Of a stretch of 64,000 bases of DNA, positions 54,644 through 64,000 are shown one piece after another. The stretch lies in the NCBI GenBank assembly GCA_020057885.1, contig JAGVEX010000015.1:55862-119861 (forward strand), in the 5' to 3' direction. Position numbers and translations under genes: made by a program. Under the pieces are notes generated by a model, which made no database searches, was not told where the DNA came from, and was given only the letters and a program-made list of their open reading frames with translations. Each line of letters opens with the position of its first letter. Positions within the stretch are counted from its first letter, which is position 1. The stretch comes from a bacterium (GTDB lineage Bacteria; Patescibacteriota; Patescibacteriia; Veblenbacterales; UBA10138).

Positions 54644-56140
54644 TTATTTTATAAACACTACATTATTTTTACGAGCAGCAGCGAGTCCGAGTTGTAAACG
54701 TTCCTTACTCGCGGCATACAAAGTAAATAATTTATCGCCCTTTTTCACTTTATTGCCCCAATCGACATGTGTATGAATACCGGCGATTTTTTCGTGCGGT
54801 GCGCCCAAATTCATACAAATTTCATTAATCGCGCGATCGTGTATCAAAACAACTTTACCGGATTTTTTGGAATGAATTTCATAACGGAAAGCGCCCGTAG
54901 CAATTTCTTCTGATTTAATATTATAATTACCACCCTGCGCCTTAATAATCTCTTGCATTTTTTTCCAAGCCGCGCCATTTAACAATTGCTTTTGCGCAAT
55001 TTTTTTACCTTGTCCTTTGCGGCAATAACCCTTAAGCTCCAAAAGTTCACCAGCCAAATAAATTGATTTACGCTCTAAATCGTGCGGGCGTAATTTATGT
55101 TGCTGTAAAACGCGCAACACATCACGCGCTTCCAGCGCTGGCCCAATACCGCGTCCTATTGGCTCACGCGCCAAGGTTTTAATAACCTTTACTTTCATAT
55201 GGAACTTACGCCCAAGCCATTCAAACTTTTTCTGTAATTGATTGGCTGTGCGCATATTAGGAATTTTGGTAGTTTCGCCAATCGGCATATCAATAACCAA
55301 ATAATCCACCCCCATGGCCACTTTTTTAGCCATTATGGAAACTATCATTTTATCGTAAGGCTCAAGGGCTAACGGTCTTGAGATTTTTATAATTTTATCA
55401 TCGGCTGGGGCAATATTAAGCCCACCGCCCCACACCAAACAAGCTTTGGTTTTTTTAACTATTTCCTTAATCTGCTTCATGGAAAAACTTACCGGCGCCA
55501 ACACTTCCATCGTATCAGCAGTACCGGCTGGCGAAGTTATGGCGCGCGAAGACGTTTTGGGAATATAAATCCCGAGCGAGGCAATAATGGGAATCACCAC
55601 CATAGTTGTGCGGTTACCTGGCAAGCCGCCGACTGAATGTTTATCTACCACCTTTGTTGGCAGATCCATTTTTTCACCTGTATTGGCAATTGATTTGGCT
55701 AGATAATAAAGCTCGTCTTTGGAATACGGCTTAACAAAACCAGAGGCCACGAAATAAGTAATCTCGGGTATTGATAATTTATTTTGGGTTATATCAGAAA
55801 TAATTGAATGAATTTCCTCATAGCCCAAAGGCTTGCCCAACATTTTTTTCTTAATAGCCTGAATAGATGGTGGGCGCGATATAATAGATACTTCCACCAC
55901 GTCACCCTCCTCAATATTACGGCCGCGCCAAACCTCACGAAACAAGCCCACGCGCCCCGGCATTACTTTGGCTTTACTAGTATCAGCCGATACGACCAAT
56001 TTGGATCTATTACTCCATTTAAGCTCTATTCTATCGCCTGCCTGTATGCCTAAACTTTCGGCCTCGGCTTCATTAAGCACTGCAATAATTTCGTTGCCGG
56101 CGGAAAAATCTAATTTTTTTGACTTTAGATAAAATGACAT
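54644..56140 (-). CDS. AMP phosphorylase (thymidine phosphorylase family, archaeal DeoA-type)
   Basis: 498 aa. An N-terminal extra domain precedes the pyrimidine-nucleoside phosphorylase core (DKHSVGGLPGNRTT...SSRAITSPAGTADTMEVL). It is adjacent to an R15P isomerase. Confidence 0.7.
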   Translation of the reverse strand: MSFYLKSKKLDFSAGNEIIAVLNEAEAESLGIQAGDRIELKWSNRSKLVVSADTSKAKVMPGRVGLFREVWRGRNIEEGDVVEVSIISRPPSIQAIKKKMLGKPLGYEEIHSIISDITQNKLSIPEITYFVASGFVKPYSKDELYYLAKSIANTGEKMDLPTKVVDKHSVGGLPGNRTTMVVIPIIASLGIYIPKTSSRAITSPAGTADTMEVLAPVSFSMKQIKEIVKKTKACLVWGGGLNIAPADDKIIKISRPLALEPYDKMIVSIMAKKVAMGVDYLVIDMPIGETTKIPNMRTANQLQKKFEWLGRKFHMKVKVIKTLAREPIGRGIGPALEARDVLRVLQQHKLRPHDLERKSIYLAGELLELKGYCRKGQGKKIAQKQLLNGAAWKKMQEIIKAQGGNYNIKSEEIATGAFRYEIHSKKSGKVVLIHDRAINEICMNLGAPHEKIAGIHTHVDWGNKVKKGDKLFTLYAASKERLQLGLAAARKNNVVFIK

Positions 56141-56160
56141 AAATAAAAGCTTCGCTTTTA

Positions 56161-56175
56161 CCCCGCGGAGCGGGG
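56161..56175 (-). terminator. GC hairpin (CCCCGC-GGA-GCGGGG) between the R15P isomerase and AMP phosphorylase genes
   Basis: Read directly. Confidence 0.35.
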
Positions 56176-56268
56176 TGGTCCGCCACGGCGAACCAAAATA
56201 CTAAATTCGAAATCCCTGCCTACCGGTAGGCTGGCTAAACTCTAAACAACATATGAATAAAAAATTAA

Positions 56269-57201
56269 TTATTTAGATAGCCAAGGATAATGCTGTTTAA
56301 CTAATTTTACCACTTGCTTGGGTTTAATTATACCAAATTCACAAATAATACCAGTAATATACTTAGCAGGCACTTTATCAAAGGCATAATTTATTATTTT
56401 TGTGCCGCGTGGCGCATGCGGCCACAGCTCTTGCCGCGGGCGCAATTCAATTTTACTCTCCCCTTTCATATCTGCCTTTAAAAGTGTAGCGGCAATATAA
56501 ACTGGAATTTTAGAATCATAAGCCGCTAAAGCAATGCCAAAACTACCAATTTTATTTAACACCGACCCATCGCGTGCTATGCTATCAGCGCCCAATAAAA
56601 CTAAATTGATTTTAACATCATCCCCCGAGTGGTTAGAAACCAACCAGGCCGCTGCACTGTCGGCTACCATTGCACAGGGTATTTTAGAGTGACGCAAATG
56701 CTTGTCAGTAATATGACCTTGAAACAAAGGCCTGGTTTCGGTGTGATAAACTTTAAATCTTTTCCCCTTGCGATGCGCGGCCAACAAAACTTTTTCCGCC
56801 AATGAAGAATGGCAATGTGTAAAAATATTTCTTTTGGCGGTAAGCGCCACAACTCCGGCGTGACTTAATTTATTTTCAGCTTGTTTTAAATAAGCTTCCA
56901 ATTTAACCACCAGTTGTTCAACTAATTTATTCCAATTTGATTTATTTAAATTAACTGCTCGCTTTTTTAATTCATATACAAACCACCGACTAATATTGCG
57001 TGCCAACGGTTCGGTAGGTCTTAAATTAGCCAAGTCTTCCTGTATTTTGGCTAGACTTTTCCAATCGGCTTTGGTAGTTGGTATTTTTTCAGATTTAGCA
57101 TAATGCGACAAAGCCTGCAAAGTGGTTTGCGCTACCAGTGTTGCGCCCTGAATATGAACACTTAACAAATCCTTCTTAAAATTCTTGAGGGAGTTTGACA
57201 T
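56269..57201 (-). CDS. Ribose-1,5-bisphosphate isomerase (eIF-2B alpha/beta/delta-like, e2b2 family)
   Basis: 310 aa. The C-terminal LLGADSIARDGSVLNKIGSFGIALAAYDSKIPVYIAA is typical of the e2b2/MtnA family. Confidence 0.65.
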   Translation of the reverse strand: MSNSLKNFKKDLLSVHIQGATLVAQTTLQALSHYAKSEKIPTTKADWKSLAKIQEDLANLRPTEPLARNISRWFVYELKKRAVNLNKSNWNKLVEQLVVKLEAYLKQAENKLSHAGVVALTAKRNIFTHCHSSLAEKVLLAAHRKGKRFKVYHTETRPLFQGHITDKHLRHSKIPCAMVADSAAAWLVSNHSGDDVKINLVLLGADSIARDGSVLNKIGSFGIALAAYDSKIPVYIAATLLKADMKGESKIELRPRQELWPHAPRGTKIINYAFDKVPAKYITGIICEFGIIKPKQVVKLVKQHYPWLSK

Positions 57202-57218: not shown

Positions 57219-59081
57219 TTACTCATCAAATCTAATTACTTGCCCGGGCTGCAATTTTTTAAAATTGGACTCAGCTTTGTTATTTTCTTCTGACATATGC
57301 TGATCTACCGAGCGAGCATTAAAAGAAACCGGTTTGCGAGCTAAGGCTTCTTCTAAAGAAATACTAGGTGGCGGCGTTGGCACTAGTGGCTGTGCCATGA
57401 CCAACGGACTAGCTGTTTTTTCTTCCGGTACTGGCGGTAAAGCATTTTCAACTGTCGGCAAATCAACCGGTGCTTGTGCTGGGCCTTGGGTTGCATTTGT
57501 TACCACTAACCTTGGTTTTGGTTTGGCAATTATTCCTTGTCGCACCCGTTTCATATCTTCTTTGCAATAAACCGCCCTAATGCCGTCGGGCTTAAATGGT
57601 AATTGCACCTTACGTTTGCAAACCCAGCATTCTGCCTCAAAAAGCTCCCGTTCCGGATTTAAATTCAAACGCGGTGGCTCATTGGAAGTGGTGGCCGCCC
57701 CGCGCTGTTTAAACGAAGCTGGCACATTACGATACATCATTTCTTCGGGATCAAGCGAACGAGAATCTTCGTGGGCGGATCCTTTAAACGTTTCCTCCAC
57801 GCCTGCCCAACGCAAAATTTTCTCCTCTACCACTGTTCTATTCTTAGCATAACGTTCACGTGATACTCTAATAATTTTATCGCGGTTATTAGTGCGCTGA
57901 GAAATTGGCGGTAAAGTAGTAGCGCTAAAGGCGGAACTAGTAACACCATCTATCATTAATTTTAAATAAATATGATAGTTGGGCAAAGATACTAAATCCG
58001 TCTGCATAAAAGTTGGCTCAAATTCCGGCTCTAAATATTCGGCATCTTCTGCGCCGATGCGGAATATAATCATAGTACCAACGTTGCCAAAAACTGAGGC
58101 TTTAACCTCGTCACCTAATTGCTCAATATATTGGTGAGCCATAATTAAATCCAAGCGATATTTACGCGCTTCTGACAGAATGTTGGCAAAACTTTCTGTG
58201 GCAAAATTTTGAAACTCGTCTACATAAAGAAAAAAATCTTGGCGTTCTTCTTCGGGAGTATCAATGCGGCTCATTGCCGCCAGCTGGATTTTTGTAATCA
58301 TCATAGCGCCAAGTAGCGCTGAGTTATCTTCACCCACCCTACCTTTGGACAAATCCATCAACAAAATTTTACGTCCATCCATAATTTCTCGCAAATCAAG
58401 AGTGGATTTGGATTGGCCAACAATATTGCGAATAATAGCCGAAGATAAAAATTGGCCAATTTTATTTTGGATAGGTGAAATAGCTTCCGTACGGAATTTT
58501 TCATTGTAATTTTCATATTCATCAATCCAGAAAGAACGTACCACCGGATCACTTAATTTATCCAAAACTTTTCGGCGAAAATATTTATCCACTAAAATAC
58601 GTGTAATACCAAGCAAAGTGGAGCCAGGATATTCTAAAAGCGATAATATGGCATTACGTAAAATGTATTCCAAGCGCGGCCCCCAGGAATCAGCCCAAAT
58701 TTTCTTAAACACACCAATCAAACCCGAAGCTACCAAATGACGATACCTTGGATCCACTGCCTCCAAGGGGTTAAAAGCTACTGGGTAATCAACATCCGAA
58801 GGATTAAAATACACTACGTCGTTTACGCGACTAGAAGGGATTATATCCAAAATCTTTTCCACCAAATCACCGTGCGGGTCAACTACTGCCACACCAAAAC
58901 CAGCGCGGATATCGCTCGCTATCATATTTTCAAGCATGACAGATTTACCCGTACCAGATTTACCAATTACATACATATGGCGACGGCGATCGTCCAGCTT
59001 AATACCGAATTTCCGCGATTGATTGCGAAAATTAGTTTCGGCAAAAGGAGTGATATTGTAACGTGGGGTCAACTCTTCCAT
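57219..59081 (-). CDS. FtsK/HerA-superfamily P-loop ATPase (TraD/VirD4 coupling-protein-like), soluble, with C-terminal zinc ribbon and Pro-rich tail
   Basis: Walker A HMYVIGKSGTGKS, Walker B FFLYVDEFQNF and an AHQ motif are present. The C-terminal ECWVCKRKVQLPFKPDGIRAVYCKEDMKRV is followed by a PAQAPVDLPTVENALPPVPEEK tail. Confidence 0.55.
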   Translation of the reverse strand: MEELTPRYNITPFAETNFRNQSRKFGIKLDDRRRHMYVIGKSGTGKSVMLENMIASDIRAGFGVAVVDPHGDLVEKILDIIPSSRVNDVVYFNPSDVDYPVAFNPLEAVDPRYRHLVASGLIGVFKKIWADSWGPRLEYILRNAILSLLEYPGSTLLGITRILVDKYFRRKVLDKLSDPVVRSFWIDEYENYNEKFRTEAISPIQNKIGQFLSSAIIRNIVGQSKSTLDLREIMDGRKILLMDLSKGRVGEDNSALLGAMMITKIQLAAMSRIDTPEEERQDFFLYVDEFQNFATESFANILSEARKYRLDLIMAHQYIEQLGDEVKASVFGNVGTMIIFRIGAEDAEYLEPEFEPTFMQTDLVSLPNYHIYLKLMIDGVTSSAFSATTLPPISQRTNNRDKIIRVSRERYAKNRTVVEEKILRWAGVEETFKGSAHEDSRSLDPEEMMYRNVPASFKQRGAATTSNEPPRLNLNPERELFEAECWVCKRKVQLPFKPDGIRAVYCKEDMKRVRQGIIAKPKPRLVVTNATQGPAQAPVDLPTVENALPPVPEEKTASPLVMAQPLVPTPPPSISLEEALARKPVSFNARSVDQHMSEENNKAESNFKKLQPGQVIRFDE

Positions 59082-59084
59082 AGA

Positions 59085-60494
59085 TTAATCAACAAAGGGC
59101 AAATTAGATGGCGGCCCGCCTTTGCCACCAGTTTCCGAAACAGCTTGCGCGCCAGACATGGGTTTTAAATAGCCTCCCAAAGTAGGTAAAAGAGTTGGTG
59201 GTTCAGATTTTTTGGTTTCCGTTTTTTTAACCAATGGCGCCTTCACTGTTACAACTGGGAAATGGTAAAGGGAGGCCAACTCTTCGGTATTTAAAATAAA
59301 GCCATGCCCTAATCCCCTATGAGCGCTGCGTATTTTATATGATTTAAGAATACTTTTTTGTTTGCGGTTAATACGAGATTGCTTAAGAAAATATTCAGCT
59401 TTGGTTGTTACTCGTTTACCAGGCAAAAAACCGTTCATATTTAAAGCGGTAAATTGCTGAATAGCTCCCACTACGGCCGATACTCCTCTGCCCTTTAAAA
59501 AAGTTTCACGTTTACCCCAATAAACCAATCTGAGTTTTGAGTGAAAACCAATTTTAGAAGCTTTGTGTTCAATTCCTTCTACTACAGCTTTCTCGCCAGG
59601 AGTGAGTTTGGTAATATCACGGACTATCTCTACCTCTTTACCACCACTGTATTCGTTGCCGCACCAATTTGGCTCAAAAATACCGGCAAAAGCTATTTCC
59701 ACAATTACACAAACAGTATTCAATGGTAATTCTACAAACAACCAATATATCATACCATGCCCGGAGTGTTTTTTATGTTCAACTATTTTTTTAACCTCAG
59801 CGGCGGATTCAGCTTTCCAGTGATCACTGCAAGGTGTTACTAATAATTGTAGCCAAACATCTTCGTCTGTATTAACGCGGCTTAAAATTTCCAATAAGGC
59901 CGCCATGGGATCTTTAAAATCGCCGGAAAGCGTATGCTCAAAATCGGGATAAGTGCGTAGGGGATAAGCGCTTTTTTTAGTAAGCGCAAACTCTGTGCCC
60001 CATAAATCATAAGCATCTGTATCAAAATCAAGTGGCACGCGATCTACATAATCTTCCACTTCGGTAATTTCAGCATCGGGATATTGTGCGTAAATTGAAG
60101 ATTCTATTAAATCGCGATAGTCAGCTGGTGTGCGAATTAAAAATTGTATGTAACCACCCAAGCTAACAATTTCAAAACTAAAAGATTCTTGGTGCTTGCC
60201 CTGCCACAAACGCTGGTAAATAGTACCCTTGCTATAAGTAGCGGCTAAACTAGAAAAAATTTGTTCCACCGCACGCGGACTTTGCTCGGTTTCTTTGGGT
60301 ACATCTATCGCAAGTAATACATAACGAATATTATGCTCATACTGATGCTTGCGTGAAGTAAGCCACGAAGTCCACGCTGCCCACAAGGCTGGCAAAACAG
60401 CAAAGATCCAGCCGCCATTAATGAAAATCCACCAAGCAACCGTAATCGGATCGCTGGTAGGCAAACCGCTAAGATACGTATTCAAATTTATCAT
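59085..60494 (-). CDS. Hypothetical membrane-anchored protein (partner of the ATPase)
   Basis: 469 aa; an N-terminal TM pair (WWIFINGGWIFAVLPALWAAW) is followed by a soluble domain. The 3' end abuts the ATPase gene by 3 nt. Confidence 0.45.
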   Translation of the reverse strand: MINLNTYLSGLPTSDPITVAWWIFINGGWIFAVLPALWAAWTSWLTSRKHQYEHNIRYVLLAIDVPKETEQSPRAVEQIFSSLAATYSKGTIYQRLWQGKHQESFSFEIVSLGGYIQFLIRTPADYRDLIESSIYAQYPDAEITEVEDYVDRVPLDFDTDAYDLWGTEFALTKKSAYPLRTYPDFEHTLSGDFKDPMAALLEILSRVNTDEDVWLQLLVTPCSDHWKAESAAEVKKIVEHKKHSGHGMIYWLFVELPLNTVCVIVEIAFAGIFEPNWCGNEYSGGKEVEIVRDITKLTPGEKAVVEGIEHKASKIGFHSKLRLVYWGKRETFLKGRGVSAVVGAIQQFTALNMNGFLPGKRVTTKAEYFLKQSRINRKQKSILKSYKIRSAHRGLGHGFILNTEELASLYHFPVVTVKAPLVKKTETKKSEPPTLLPTLGGYLKPMSGAQAVSETGGKGGPPSNLPFVD

Positions 60495-60496
60495 AT

Positions 60497-61633
60497 TTAT
60501 GTTTGATTGTTTGGTGTTGCCAAAGTATACCGACCATCGGGCAATCTTTGGAATTTTTGTTTATTAGTAAGTGCTAAATGAATAGTCCCCTTTTTAACTA
60601 AACGTTGTTTAAGAATATCTTCTACAATTTGGGAACGATCAAGCGGTCCTTTGGTTTTTAAAATTTCCACTAAAATATCCGCCACCACTCCAGGATTAAA
60701 ACCCCACTCTTTAAGCGCATAAATTCCGCGACCAACCAGCACATATTTTTTATCCATAATAAGTTCATTGTGCACCGTGGGCGGATAAGCCATTTTATGA
60801 TCAAATTTCTGCTCATTAACAAGTTTAGTAATTTCTCTAAAATGCAAAGGCTTACCGTGTTTTTTTAGGACCAGATAAATTTTATCATTCATGCGCTTAG
60901 GGCTAACTGTTTGCCAATGTGTTAAACCCCACTCACCAAAAGTATTGCTGCGCACGTTAACACTTAATTCTAATAGCCCCACAGCCAAACGACCGTCATT
61001 TAAACTACCGCCCAAAGGACTAGGCAAATTAGCTCGCGCTAGCTCACGCACTAATTCATCCTCTGAAATAGGGTGGCCCTTAGTGCTAATAAAATCTTGC
61101 GCGTGATTGATGATATTAGTTATAGCTTCAAGCGAAGCATTTCTTAATCGCCAACCCAAAATAAATTCTGTTTCCTCGCCGCCTAAACTTGCTACCACAT
61201 CAGTTAAAATTTCGCTTAAATAAAAATTAATAACATTCAAGCTGGCGCCATCGCCTGATTCTTGCAGTAAGTGACCAAGCTTTTCACTGGTAGCGGCACC
61301 ACTCTCGCCTTCTAAAACTTCTACCACGACTTGGCGAATCGGCCGCAACAATTCTTGGGCGCGCTTGCCTTGAACTATTTTTTGTACTGCTAATCGCTGA
61401 ATTTGGCGAATACGCTCGCGTGTTACCTGAAAAGAATTACCAATGCTTTCCAAAGTCTCCGACTCACTGCCAGAAAAACCAAAACGGCGCGCCAATACTT
61501 GCCGCTCACGCTCTCCCAACCCTTGCAAAAGTTCCGTTAATACTGCCTGCGGCCTAAAATGCTCGCGATGCGAAACCTGCTGGGTGGAGATTATTTTATC
61601 TAAAATTGATTCTTGGTCTTGATTCATAGACAC
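60497..61633 (-). CDS. Protein with N-terminal sigma-70 region-4 HTH only (no region 2) plus a 270-aa C-terminal domain of unknown function
   Basis: ERERQVLARRFGFSGSESETLESIGNSFQVTRERIRQIQRLAVQKI matches sigma-70 region 4. Confidence 0.55.
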   Translation of the reverse strand: MSMNQDQESILDKIISTQQVSHREHFRPQAVLTELLQGLGERERQVLARRFGFSGSESETLESIGNSFQVTRERIRQIQRLAVQKIVQGKRAQELLRPIRQVVVEVLEGESGAATSEKLGHLLQESGDGASLNVINFYLSEILTDVVASLGGEETEFILGWRLRNASLEAITNIINHAQDFISTKGHPISEDELVRELARANLPSPLGGSLNDGRLAVGLLELSVNVRSNTFGEWGLTHWQTVSPKRMNDKIYLVLKKHGKPLHFREITKLVNEQKFDHKMAYPPTVHNELIMDKKYVLVGRGIYALKEWGFNPGVVADILVEILKTKGPLDRSQIVEDILKQRLVKKGTIHLALTNKQKFQRLPDGRYTLATPNNQT

Positions 61634-61805
61634 AAAGATAATAGTATGGGATACTATATATTTAGTATATCATAATTATCCAATCCTGTCAATAGATAAA
61701 ATTTTCAACCAACAGGGGCAATAACTTACTTAATACCTTTTAAATTATTTTAACTTCTTGCATATACTACGACTGCCTTTCTTTATTGGAAGATAATACC
61801 GTAAT

Positions 61806-62845
61806 TCAATTAAAATTATTACGTAGGTTGTTAGATATAGAGAATCCATCACAATGCTTCAAAGCACCCAAATATGATTGCACGGATTGCTTAAAACTAT
61901 CCTCATTTAACTCACCTCGTAAAACTTCATTCTGTTTAAAAAATAACTTTTTAAATATCCTATGCTTTGTACTGGTCCTAAGCACAATATGGTAAGGCAA
62001 AACTACATAGCCTAAAAAATCTATGCCTTGACTTAGCTTACACTGTATAATCTTATTGGGGTGAAGCTCAAGTGACAAATTGTCATTCAAAAAATTCTGT
62101 ACCTTTGGTATTAGTGCATCCAATTTAATTGGATCATCATTAACCATTATAAAATCATCAGCATAGCGAAAGTAGTGTCGTACTTTTAATTCGTGTTTTA
62201 TAAATTGGTCTAATTCGTTTAAATATATGTTGGCAAAAATCTGCGAGGTCAAATTACCAATGGGTAATCCTATATTTTTTGATTGTATACCCATTAACGC
62301 CCCCCCCCCCCGACACTTCCTGGAAAACTACTAATTACCTCATCAAGTAACCAAAGTATCTGGGCATCTTTAACCCTGCTCTTTATTATATTTAATAGTT
62401 TTTGGTGATTGATGCTGTGAAAAAATCTCTTTATATCACATTTCAAAGCATAAACTGGCCGAGTGTAGTTAACACTTAATGCTCTCAAACTGTGATTTAA
62501 GTTCTGAATAGCTAAGTGAGTGCCTTTATTCAGACGAGAAGAGTAGGAATGATAAATAAACGTGGCATTAAAAACATTATCAAGGTAATCAAAAATAACG
62601 TGATGAATCAACCTATCTCTAACGCCTGCCTTGCTTATCAATCTCGGCTTAGGGTCGCAGATACGAAATGTCTGATACGGCCTGTGGCGATAGGCTTGCT
62701 CCAAAAGCTCGTTAGATAAAAAGAAAACATTATCTTCAAGATGACGTTCAAATTGAAGCACATCCATCTTACTGAGCTTGCCCTTCTTAAACTGATCCCA
62801 GGCTCTGAATAAATTTTCAGGGCTTATTAACTCTTCATAAATCAT
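61806..62845 (-). pseudogene. DGR-type reverse transcriptase, split by a frameshift in a G12 (C12 on plus strand, 62300-62311) homopolymer; a +1 G would restore a single 345-aa ORF
   Basis: ORF-A (62294-62845) has RT motifs 1-2 (PKP..G..R...RD..IHHV...SYSSR.NKGTH.A). ORF-B (61806-62294) has motifs 4-7 (GLPIGNLTSQIFANIYLNELD, YADDFIM, QGIDFLGYVV). There is no maturase or endonuclease domain. Confidence 0.8.
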
Positions 62846-63202
62846 ATGAATAATTATACCAGTACAACTGAAATACCCATCATCAAAAAATTATACGATT
62901 TGTACAAAACGTATTACGACTATCAAACCCTATTTAGCAAACGAGACAAGTACGCTCTGGGCAGTAAATGCGAACAGTATATATTTTCAACCTTTGAGCT
63001 AATACTGGCTGCCAGCAGTGCAGCTAAACAGAATAAAATGACTTTAATACAACAAGCCAATGTAAAGTTTGATACGCTTAAAGTACTATTTAGATTAGCA
63101 AAAGATTTAAAAATGTTAGATATTAAAAAATATACTGTTATTCAAGGATACCTACAGGAGATAGGACGTATGTTGGGTGGCTGGCAACGCTCACTTATAT
63201 AA
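62846..63202 (+). CDS. Avd-like four-helix-bundle protein (23S rRNA-IVS protein family), DGR accessory variability determinant candidate
   Basis: 118 aa. The helical pattern IPIIKKLYDLYKTY...ELILAASSAAKQNK...VLFRLAKDLKML...QEIGRMLGGWQRSL matches four-helix-bundle/Avd proteins. Its start codon abuts the RT start codon back-to-back (CAT|ATG). Confidence 0.65.
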   Translation: MNNYTSTTEIPIIKKLYDLYKTYYDYQTLFSKRDKYALGSKCEQYIFSTFELILAASSAAKQNKMTLIQQANVKFDTLKVLFRLAKDLKMLDIKKYTVIQGYLQEIGRMLGGWQRSLI

Positions 63203-63248
63203 GCAAAACTCCCCATAGTGGAGAGCTTTGCTAGTACCTAAAAACAAT

Positions 63249-63367
63249 CGAGAGAAGACAAGACCACCAGAGTAATTGTCATTCGCATTGCCGAGATTGC
63301 TCTTGTTGTCGAACTTGAGCTTGTCGTCATTGGCCTTCAGATAGAGCGACTTCTCAGGCTGCTGCCA
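63249..63367 (-). repeat. DGR template repeat (TR), template sense on the minus strand
   Basis: 119 nt homologous to 63749-63867. At every mismatch the plus strand has T (minus-strand A). In the VR frame it encodes AAY/AAG-rich codons (K,Y,K,N,K,K,N,K,S,N,N,N,Y). Confidence 0.85.
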
Positions 63368-63641
63368 AATTGTGCTTACATCCTCCCTTTTTCACCAGAG
63401 CCCTAAATTTTATTTTAGGTCCCTTGAATTTTATTCGGCCTCGCTAAGCCCTAGAAGTAAGCACGTAGTGTCTAGGTACACCGTATACGCTCTTGTAATC
63501 CCTGCCTGCCGTAGGCAGGCGTAAACTACAGGACTCTGATACGTTTGCGTGTTCTAGGATTTCGGCGACCCCAATCCGTAAATCGGGGTACATTAGCCTA
63601 CTCTCAAGCTTAAGTATATAGTTTTTTGATAAAAAGAAAAA

Positions 63642-63670
63642 CAGGGTTTGCGATATTTTGCAAAACCCTG
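63642..63670 (-). terminator. Hairpin (CAGGGTTTGC...GCAAAACCCTG) with a minus-strand T-run, about 75 nt downstream of VR
   Basis: Read directly; candidate target-gene terminator and DGR homing-associated stem-loop. Confidence 0.5.
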
Positions 63671-63744
63671 TTTGATATTTCTTTGAAGACCAAAGGTCAA
63701 AAGCCATTGTCCAAAGGACAAGTGGCCGAAGTCCAAAGCCCTCA

Positions 63745-64000
63745 CTACCGAGAGAAGACAAGACCACCAGAGCAACAGTCATTCGCATCGCCGAGATCGC
63801 CCTCGCCGTCGAACCTGAGCTCGTCGTCATAGGCCCCCAGACAGAGCGACCGCTCAGGCTGCTGCCATTGAAGAGCGGACAAATCATATCCTGGGGTATT
63901 TACATCACGGGCCAGTGTTTCTGTGTACATTATATGGCCGATAACTCTCTCAAAACCAGCTAAACTAATTTGTTCTGGCAGTGTTGCCATCTGCTCACGC
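63745..64000 (-). CDS. DGR target gene, 3' portion (5' end lies outside the window); the variable region encodes the C-terminal 40 aa
   Basis: The frame is open to the window edge and the stop codon is at 63745-63747. The C-terminus reads ...WQQPERSLCLGAYDDELRFDGEGDLGDANDCCSGGLVFSR. The VR (63749-63867) differs from the TR at 17 positions, all TR-adenine sites. Confidence 0.75.
   Translation of the reverse strand, partial: REQMATLPEQISLAGFERVIGHIMYTETLARDVNTPGYDLSALQWQQPERSLCLGAYDDELRFDGEGDLGDANDCCSGGLVFSR
63749..63867 (-). repeat. DGR variable repeat (VR)
   Basis: Pairs with the TR. Identity at the 3' end (minus strand, CTCTGGTGGTCTTGTCTTCTCTCG) forms an IMH-like invariant segment. Confidence 0.85.

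Follow-up and report, generated by a model that had tools for sequence, protein, structure and literature searches.

We analysed a stretch of 64,000 nucleotides, hereafter the window, from a bacterium of the Patescibacteriota (Veblenbacterales, UBA10138; assembly GCA_020057885.1, contig JAGVEX010000015.1, positions 55,862 to 119,861 of the forward strand), and in particular three genes packed on its minus strand between positions 57,219 and 61,633. In the order of transcription, they code for a 378-aa protein joining a sigma-70 region 4 to a HARE-HTH domain (HTH, helix-turn-helix), named SigHARE hereafter, a 469-aa membrane protein of the DUF8128 family, and a 620-aa ATPase, with gaps of 2 nt between the first two genes and 3 nt between the last two. 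An earlier note on this DNA, made from the sequence and its open reading frames (ORFs), had described the same layout, which we confirm, and had suggested a minimal DNA-translocation or secretion module with its own regulator. The features of the locus are as follows (TM, transmembrane).

60497-61633, minus strand: SigHARE, 378 aa; its sigma-70 region 4 is followed by a variable central part, then by a HARE-HTH and another conserved stretch at the C-terminus.
61376-61531, minus strand: sigma-70 region 4 of SigHARE (PF04545), residues 35-86, with the motif TRERIRQIQ.
60704-60895, minus strand: HARE-HTH of SigHARE (PF05066), an RNA polymerase delta-like winged helix, residues ~247-310.
59085-60494, minus strand: DUF8128 protein (PF26449), 469 aa, with a TM helix, a cytosolic domain resembling the N-terminal domain of VirB4, and a disordered proline-rich tail ending in PPSNLPFVD.
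60360-60440, minus strand: N-terminal TM helix of DUF8128, residues ~19-45 (Kyte-Doolittle mean of at least 1.6 from residue 19).
57219-59081, minus strand: soluble P-loop ATPase of the VirD4/VirB4 clade, 620 aa.
58941-58964, minus strand: Walker A motif of the ATPase, GKSGTGKS, residues 40-47 (motif reading).
58215-58232, minus strand: Walker B motif of the ATPase, FLYVDE, residues 284-289, with AHQ at residues 315-317 (motif reading).
57558-57650, minus strand: treble-clef zinc ribbon of the ATPase, CxxC-x17-CxxD, residues 478-508 (PF23477 and cysteine pattern).
57222-57557, minus strand: proline-rich, probably disordered C-terminal tail of the ATPase, residues 509-620 (proline count).
61664-61692, minus strand: predicted near-consensus sigma-70 promoter, TTGACA-17 nt-TATACT with an extended -10 TG, about 30 nt before SigHARE.

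The ATPase has the Walker A, Walker B and AHQ motifs, and the proline-rich tail, that had been read in it: the tail beyond the zinc ribbon contains 16 prolines in 111 residues, and varies in length among homologs. It also has, as had been proposed, no TM segment, since no hydrophobic segment was found along the protein (maximal 19-residue Kyte-Doolittle mean 1.26). The profile searches put forward in the earlier note, with TrwB_AAD_bind, DUF87 and T4SS-DNA_transf (T4SS, type IV secretion system) for this protein and with Sigma70_r4 for SigHARE, all gave matches above cut-off. Above Pfam gathering cut-offs, the ATPase scored 38.7 bits with TrwB_AAD_bind, 34.7 with DUF87 (cut-off 23.2), 33.9 with T4SS-DNA_transf and 23.8 with TraG-D_C, and the closest solved sequences were TrwB (1e9r, E 2e-7) and DotL. 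Membership in the VirD4/VirB4/HerA clade is thus supported. Matches to the NCBIfam models of TraD, CD1115-type VirD4, CedD, VirB4 and HerA were partial and far under cut-off: 43.7 bits versus 366 for TIGR03743, 42.6 versus 250 for NF045973 and 15.8 versus 521 for TIGR02759 (TraD and VirD4-like models), 15.3 versus 643 for TIGR00929 (VirB4), and 12.2 versus 970 for the HerA equivalog NF040819. PF01580 (FtsK_SpoIIIE) gave 17.5 bits, under its cut-off of 24, and the Pfam scan found no match to PF03135 (CagE_TrbE_VirB). A replacement for FtsK was considered and rejected: TM7x has a separately annotated ftsK, and FtsK models and fold score lower.

The C-terminal zinc ribbon described earlier is present, zf_Tbcl_2 (PF23477) being matched at residues 478-508 with 32 bits for a cut-off of 27 (TIGR04272 stays below, 31.1 versus 36), but it is degenerate in the window protein, where the CxxC-x17-CxxD pattern keeps three cysteines and an aspartate. 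Among the best 120 ATPase homologs, this ribbon has four cysteines in 45, three in 51 and none in 24. By title and abstract, the few papers mentioning 'CxxC-x17-CxxC' appear unrelated to the function of this domain. Public records with sequences identical to the ATPase and its partner are named only 'CxxC-x17-CxxC domain-containing protein' and 'hypothetical protein'.

The assignment of the partner to DUF8128 is indirect, via precomputed labels: PF26449 is assigned to 119 of the 120 listed homologs (down to 42% identity), and to the gene found at the same locus in an independent assembly. The name 'DUF8128' gave zero matches in a full-text literature search. Two hydrophobic segments are present, one starting at residue 19, the other at 247-274 in a gap-rich, poorly conserved part of the family alignment. 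An AlphaFold2 model built from 87 sequences (predicted local distance difference test, pLDDT, 85.8; predicted template-modelling score, pTM, 0.79) places residues 16-55 in one long helix. The stretch SRKHQYEH that follows the TM helix, combined with the positive-inside rule, indicates that the globular domain is probably cytoplasmic. In the family alignment, this domain contains the conserved motifs LLAIDVPK..EQSP.AVE, FSFEIVS..GYIQF, RDL.E..IYAQYPDAEI and LN.EELA..YHFP, and the disordered proline-rich tail closes with a conserved PPxNLP peptide.

A fold comparison of this model gave a list without any P-loop ATPase (C-terminal domain of VirB4, TrwB or HerA), so that it is the N-terminal domain of VirB4 that DUF8128 matches. 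Independently, Foldseek returned four TrwK chains at the top (E 7e-4, prob 1.0), followed by EccE3. The link is visible by fold comparison only, the DUF8128 profile having no match among PDB sequences even at E 10. On the predicted fold, DUF8128 is a homolog of the VirB4 N-terminal domain, and the overall architecture of the pair is VirB4-like. The earlier note had seen in the 469-aa protein the membrane anchor that VirD4-type proteins normally contain. A role as anchor agrees with the fold, and with the gene adjacency and fused paralog described below, but the protein is not a stand-in for the VirD4 TM domain, being VirB4-N-like by fold.

Gene neighbourhoods were compared at the best 80 of more than 590 matches of the DUF8128 alignment in species-representative genomes. 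The ATPase gene lies directly downstream of DUF8128 in 57 of the 77 testable loci. In addition, a colinear fused paralog of ~850 aa is encoded in the same genomes as the split pair: its residues 55-417 correspond to DUF8128 45-440 (24% identity, E 2e-24, EELAS.YHFP motif included), and its residues 425-838 to ATPase 18-423 (47% identity, E 4e-129). All of the ~120 listed fused homologs carry both PF26449 and PF10412. In the nearest relative, the fused protein (P0253) and the split proteins (P0124 and P0002) all report the same 876,493-bp longest contig. Genes neighbouring the fused paralog are holB, frr, rseP and dnaX. At three loci, the SigHARE-linked copy is itself a single DUF8128-ATPase ORF (L060, L094, L098), which implies that fusion or fission happened more than once. 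Adjacency, the colinear fused paralog and the VirB4-N-domain-like fold together show that one motor of the VirB4/VirD4 family is divided here into two halves, DUF8128 and the ATPase. In fold, this motor stands as close to VirB4 as to VirD4; sequence models bring it nearer to VirD4, and its domain architecture is VirB4-like.

Three side observations concern these two genes. In the nearest relative, the fused paralog is preceded, at a distance of 8 nt, by a 138-aa ORF devoid of Pfam match (L085:9576-9992). The PHROGs family phrog_5156, a phage-protein family of unknown function with 824 profile positions, corresponds to the fused form, the ATPase aligning with profile positions 403-806 and DUF8128 with 49-204; its members may be prophage calls in genomes of the candidate phyla radiation (CPR), or misclassified CPR contigs, DUF8128 being near-absent from IMG/VR. 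Finally, at nine Falkowbacteria-like loci (L049, L053, L058, L067, L072, L073, L075, L082, L083), SigHARE and DUF8128 are followed, instead of the ATPase, by three same-strand ORFs of ~400, 850-960 and 670 aa, which at L049, the sole locus scanned among the nine, code for a GT4 glycosyltransferase, a DUF4012 protein and a DUF11 surface protein. There, DUF8128 must pair with an ATPase encoded elsewhere, or act alone.

SigHARE starts two codons later, at an ATG, in public gene calls (376 aa). Its N-terminus had been described as a sigma-70 region 4, in a protein deprived of region 2, and this holds: Sigma70_r4 (PF04545) is matched with E 1.8e-12 (47 bits, cut-off 24.1), the best NCBIfam matches are C-termini of RpoD (E 8e-16), and Pfam finds neither region 2 nor region 3, although the same search finds both in P0365, a fusion protein presented below. 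Without these regions, SigHARE cannot act as an initiation factor. Against the PDB, its profile matched sigma region 4 exclusively, mostly of RpoD/SigA, with RpoS/SigB in addition (E to 7e-20), so that it is no generic LuxR-type HTH. In the TRERIRQI helix, the 29 members compared, with identities as low as 30%, all keep R72, E73, R74, R76, Q77 and I78, and we take these positions to be those by which sigma-70 reads the -35 hexamer. The remaining 270 aa had been called an unknown domain, which does not hold for all of it: a HARE-HTH (PF05066) scores 33.8 bits for a cut-off of 25.9, the Pfam match starting at residue 252, and homologs give full-length matches. The family comprises 562 full-length relatives at E<=1e-30 (1.84 billion representatives), nearly all of 340-400 aa, and the combination of a region 4 with a HARE-HTH in one protein of 350-400 aa is specific to it. 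A literature search combining HARE-HTH and sigma returned nothing on this architecture.

SigHARE lies directly upstream in 46 of 79 DUF8128 loci. In the reverse direction, a metagenome scan with the SigHARE alignment matched many ordinary sigma factors, together with at least 16 true full-length homologs of 28-49% identity; among the matches listed, DUF8128 is directly downstream in 14 of the 14 testable loci. Two further matches of 25% identity (L103, L104) have no DUF8128 nearby, and probably fall outside the family. Counted from both sides, SigHARE thus belongs to the module as a genuine, though dispensable, component, as had been proposed for the sigma-region-4 protein. It may be a regulator or a DNA-targeting subunit. 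The possibility that it is instead a general RNA-polymerase-associated factor, either delta-like or a sigma-4 decoy binding the beta-flap and core, which would merely share the operon, seems to us quite unlikely. Sigma region 4 and the HARE-HTH of delta are both RNA-polymerase-binding modules in other proteins, SigHARE is missing from the vicinity of 33 of the 79 DUF8128 loci, and P0365 joins a full sigma-70 to SigHARE. A linkage to DUF8128 in 14 of 14 loci at 28-49% identity would, however, be unusual for a general factor; SigHARE also lacks the acidic tail that defines delta, and its residues 247-310 score below the family cut-off of the RNA polymerase delta model TIGR04567 (30.8 bits versus 42). 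P0365 itself (800 aa) has a complete sigma-70 (regions 2, 3 and 4) in frame with a full SigHARE (second region 4 and HARE-HTH); it either reflects a true fusion, by which SigHARE is tied to the primary sigma factor, or results from read-through in gene calling.

The predicted promoter before SigHARE is the best sigma-70-like match (11/12) of the 54-64 kb interval of the window. Upstream of 57 SigHARE homologs, a promoter of at least 10/12 was present in 41 cases and of at least 11/12 in 26, with a spacer nearly always of 17 nt; the corresponding proportions were 3.3% and 0.6% in random windows, and 26% and 10% in other intergenic upstream regions of the same loci. The three genes form one conserved Patescibacteria transcription unit, with its own strong sigma-70 promoter (predicted). 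As the arrangement recurs in dozens of independent genomes, it is far beyond chance. The neighbourhood comparison that the earlier note had called for is covered by these counts (ATPase adjacent in 57/77, SigHARE upstream in 46/79, DUF8128 downstream in 14/14). Neither outcome that it had named as fatal to its proposal, an ATPase belonging to a well-characterised non-T4SS family or a sigma-like match explained by a generic LuxR or other HTH, occurred.

In annotated relatives, the order secD-secF-SigHARE-DUF8128-ATPase stands beside ribosomal, tRNA-synthetase and other core genes, and the genes downstream of the operon vary. SecF is encoded on the strand of the operon, at most 2.5 kb upstream, in 44 of 69 loci, and in 23 loci without SigHARE it abuts DUF8128 with no gene between. 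This synteny is an argument for a Sec-associated ATPase that would, together with SecDF, extract or hand over membrane or secreted proteins, SigHARE being merely the operon regulator. Such a role is modelled on the one proposed for VirB4 as a pilin dislocase; moreover the N-domain fold is common to VirB4 and to EccE of type VII protein secretion, and the window is rich in surface and secreted proteins. We nevertheless consider it improbable: a separate strong conserved promoter (predicted) lies between secF and SigHARE, SecD/SecF are found upstream in only four SigHARE-anchored metagenome loci (L089, L092, L093, L100), so that a secDF link is missing from most of that set, the window itself has another cassette at this place, and a multi-HTH partner and a zinc ribbon fit a nucleic acid better.

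Close homologs are all from Patescibacteria/CPR (Kerfeld-, Veblen-, Kuenen-, Buchanan-, Uhr-, Magasanik- and Falkowbacteria), and the ATPase/DUF8128 family, with thousands of homologs and more than 590 genome loci, was recovered from Patescibacteria only. No T4SS or relaxase Pfam family was found in the scan of the window or in the annotated relatives (L001-L004, L085), no VirB3-, VirB6- or VirB8-type channel gene in their neighbourhoods, and no integrase gene near the operon in either. The operon is chromosomal, among housekeeping genes and often right after secDF, unlinked to T4SS, relaxase or integrase genes, and is not a conjugation module. The "atypical" secretion module of the earlier note, taken as a mobile one, is thus replaced by a core chromosomal operon of Patescibacteria.

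These data also bear on an origin as remnant or cargo of a mobile element (integrative and conjugative element, conjugative plasmid), or as an anti-phage defence ATPase of the HerA, Dnd or MADS kind. Partial PADLOC matches to mad8 (E 4.8e-15), HerA and DndH, the representation of the fused form by phrog_5156, and a diversity-generating retroelement (DGR) next door could be cited in its favour. The defence matches all fall far short of full-length family matches, though, and none of the neighbourhoods examined offers a nuclease, sirtuin, methylase, relaxase or integrase as partner. The family is large, was recovered from Patescibacteria only, and is conserved in gene order among core genes; DUF8128 is essentially absent from 2.9 million viral contigs (IMG/VR), a single chimeric fragment being found; and the G+C content of the trio (~0.40) equals that of its flanks. 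With VirD4-like genes reported in 96% of the genomes of the phylum, in passages of a recent survey (PMC12102498), we regard this origin as very improbable.

The DGR lies directly upstream of the operon (61806-63990), in the slot that secD-secF occupy in relatives. It consists of a reverse transcriptase (RVT_1), a bAvd gene on the plus strand (62846-63202; PF22296, E 1.4e-19) and a template/variable repeat pair of 124 nt (63244-63367 and 63744-63867; 85% identical). In minus-strand reading, the two copies mismatch at 19 positions, of which 18 are adenines in the first copy. The variable copy is located where an ORF of the minus strand (63745-63990 or longer) has its 3' end. The reverse transcriptase is divided between two ORFs that overlap and differ in frame (61806-62845; RVT_1 profile positions 8-97 and 117-204). 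As gene calls of an independent assembly, made from a different sequencing run, show the identical split (L168:868-1906), it represents a real frameshift, either pseudogene or programmed, rather than a one-off assembly error.

On the other side, 17 nt past the ATPase, are an IF-2B/ribose-1,5-bisphosphate-isomerase-like gene and then an AMP-phosphorylase-like gene of the Glycos_transf_3 family (54644-57201), named from the window ORFs and the Pfam labels of their equivalents in L001 and L168. They resemble the archaeal-type AMP salvage genes that we take to be typical of CPR. The operon abuts such salvage genes in the window and a few relatives: e2b2 or AMP phosphorylase is directly downstream in 6 of 57 genome loci (L005, L022, L025, L030, L045, L060), and in L001. 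A link to nucleotide salvage was rejected as evidence, this adjacency being lineage-specific. The remaining ORFs of the window code for surface and secreted proteins, a Wzy-like protein, a CAP-domain protein and the salvage genes, and no tRNA or Rfam RNA was found in it. Between 33593 and 45185, families of direct repeats (45-280 nt, 60-86% identical) occur inside and between large minus-strand ORFs; the ORFs that bear them carry SpaA-like, DUF11 and Peptidase_M73 domains, i.e. the repeats are repeated domains of paralogous surface proteins.

Orphan VirD4-like genes have been counted in this phylum. Passages of the survey by Quinonero-Coronel et al. (2025, PMC12102498) give 5,713 copies in 2,918 of 3,035 Patescibacteria genomes, only 148 of them near virB4, and present these genes as 'possibly exapted', which is the authors' suggestion; in S. 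epibionticum, the VirD4-like copy is non-essential and the T4SS genes are essential. As far as these passages go, the orphan 'T4CP homologues' (T4CP, type IV coupling protein) are almost certainly the same genes as our split and fused paralogs, whose coexistence explains the approximately two copies per genome. The same passages make no mention of a DUF8128 partner or a VirB4-N-domain fold, of the split/fused duality, of SigHARE, of the secDF synteny or of the promoter. The ATPase family is previously known as an HMM match (HMM, hidden Markov model), and its DUF8128 partner, the split/fused duality, SigHARE, the promoter and the secDF synteny are not described in the literature searched.

With these counts, the pair can be confronted with a further role, that of a trans-encoded coupling protein of the Patescibacterial T4SS. 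It would dock via its VirB4-like N-domain onto the VirB3/VirB4/VirB6/VirB8 inner-membrane complex, and feed substrates, proteins or nucleic acids, into the T4SS or receive them from it. Sequence models do bring the ATPase closest to T4CPs (TrwB_AAD_bind, T4SS-DNA_transf and TraD, with TrwB and DotL as PDB matches), no coupling protein is recognisable in the essential T4SS cluster of S. epibionticum (Wang et al. 2023, PMC10633639), and t4cp genes are often encoded away from virB4, according to the passages of PMC12102498. The prevalence in that source, 96% for T4CP-like genes versus 80% for VirB4, is moreover what our arithmetic expects from two copies versus one in ~80%-complete genomes, so that it is evidence neither of independence nor against co-occurrence. 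The proximity of only 148 of the 5,713 copies to virB4, and a VirD4-like copy that is dispensable in S. epibionticum where the T4SS is essential, speak on the contrary against this role. So do the neighbourhoods examined, i.e. those of the window and annotated relatives, which contain no T4SS gene, the operon being linked to secDF and SigHARE instead. Lastly, a VirB4-type N-domain is absent from canonical T4CPs, which carry a TM domain of their own. We judge the coupling-protein role unlikely, while deserving serious consideration.

We lean, modestly and for the package as a whole, toward a hexameric motor that is anchored in the membrane and handles nucleic acids, with a DNA-binding subunit or regulator dedicated to it. 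Its architectural part appears highly probable, whereas a nucleic acid as substrate is plausible rather than probable. DUF8128 would hold the ATPase hexamer at the membrane, on its cytoplasmic side, in the way of the VirB4 N-domain, and translation of the two is probably coupled, because their genes are 3 nt apart. Driven by ATP, the motor would act on a polymer by moving or remodelling it, and this polymer is most likely a nucleic acid, DNA or other, since its nearest relatives are mostly DNA motors (TrwB/TraD, HerA, DndH, FtsK) and its partner is a multi-HTH protein. SigHARE, which holds at least two recognised HTH modules, may bind -35-like TTGACA DNA, and could thereby autoregulate the consensus promoter of the operon and/or mark the DNA on which the motor acts, in analogy with the gamma domain of FtsK or the winged HTH of Streptomyces TraB. 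The system would work independently of conjugation. Translocation or secretion of DNA by the motor, as first suggested, remains an inference.

Several points weigh against this preferred reading of a nucleic-acid motor. VirB4, to which the N-domain is structurally most similar, is not known to pump DNA itself. Proteins are what EccC and the T4CPs of effector systems transport, and the secDF linkage could point instead to the handling of proteins or membrane proteins. The ATPase is not adjacent in 20 of 77 DUF8128 loci, and the 33 of 79 loci with no SigHARE upstream indicate that the trio is not obligatory as a cluster. Zinc-ribbon presence and SigHARE adjacency were uncorrelated (Fisher p 0.50). 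As for the conserved promoter, the normal primary sigma would recognise it in any case, and it is no proof of binding by SigHARE. Lastly, the structure was modelled for the fused paralog, as a proxy for the split pair, and not for the split complex itself.

In its broadest form, the nucleic-acid motor would be a T4SS-independent translocase present throughout Patescibacteria, in which SigHARE selects the polymer, and it could be a machine for uptake or processing of host DNA or RNA. This extension is a long shot. The nucleic-acid uptake route of nucleotide-auxotrophic epibionts is explicitly left unresolved in a 2026 OT8 preprint. A large part of bacterial diversity belongs to Patescibacteria, whose conserved genes mostly lack an assigned function. 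For VirD4-like ATPases, found in 96% of their genomes apart from the essential T4SS (PMC12102498, in the passages considered), our results provide a concrete, testable three-component system, in organisms that are now genetically manipulable.

Among known systems, HerA-NurA and the HerA defence systems share the DUF87 domain with the ATPase, and no NurA, Sir2 or nuclease gene is a neighbour here in the neighbourhoods examined. Similarity to the EccE/EccC pair of type VII secretion is much weaker: EccC has three ATPase domains and its own TM helices, and no other ESX gene is present at our locus. With sigma-70 factors, SigHARE shares region 4.2 and all the -35-contact residues, but not regions 2 and 3. 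With the delta subunit of Firmicutes RNA polymerase (RpoE), it shares the HARE-HTH, which is C-terminal in SigHARE and N-terminal in delta, and it has no acidic tail. FtsK/SpoIIIE and Streptomyces TraB offer an analogy of working only, being membrane-anchored hexameric motors of the same superfamily combined with an HTH that reads sequence. The FtsK motor model is not matched above cut-off, and neither a gamma domain nor an N-terminal polytopic membrane domain is found; in FtsK and TraB the HTH is part of the motor protein (gamma domain), whereas here it would possibly be supplied in trans by SigHARE.

T4CPs (VirD4/TrwB/TraD/DotL) are the best sequence-family matches of the ATPase (PF10412, PF02534, PF12696, TrwB). 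Like it, they combine a nucleotide-binding domain with an all-alpha insertion, and TraD and DotL have a C-terminal extension, by which they bind adaptors. Unlike T4CPs, the ATPase polypeptide has no TM domain, its anchor being the VirB4-N-domain-like partner; it is not linked to relaxase or T4SS genes, and scores far below equivalog cut-offs (for TraD, 43.7 bits versus 366). VirB4, as represented by TrwK of R388 and by the protein of Thermoanaerobacter pseudethanolicus, likewise has an N-terminal membrane-associated domain and a C-terminal RecA-like ATPase, and this succession, a VirB4-type domain and then the ATPase, is the one found in DUF8128 and the ATPase taken together. The anchoring of DUF8128 by a short TM element recalls VirB3-VirB4 fusions. 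The present motor differs from VirB4 in being split into two genes, with an additional zinc ribbon and proline-rich tail, in having no sequence-level membership in that family and no VirB3, VirB6 or VirB8 neighbours, and in occurring as two paralogs per genome, in a housekeeping context. For the evolution of VirB4 and VirD4, it thus represents a combination of a VirB4-type N-domain with an ATPase that sequence models call a coupling protein.

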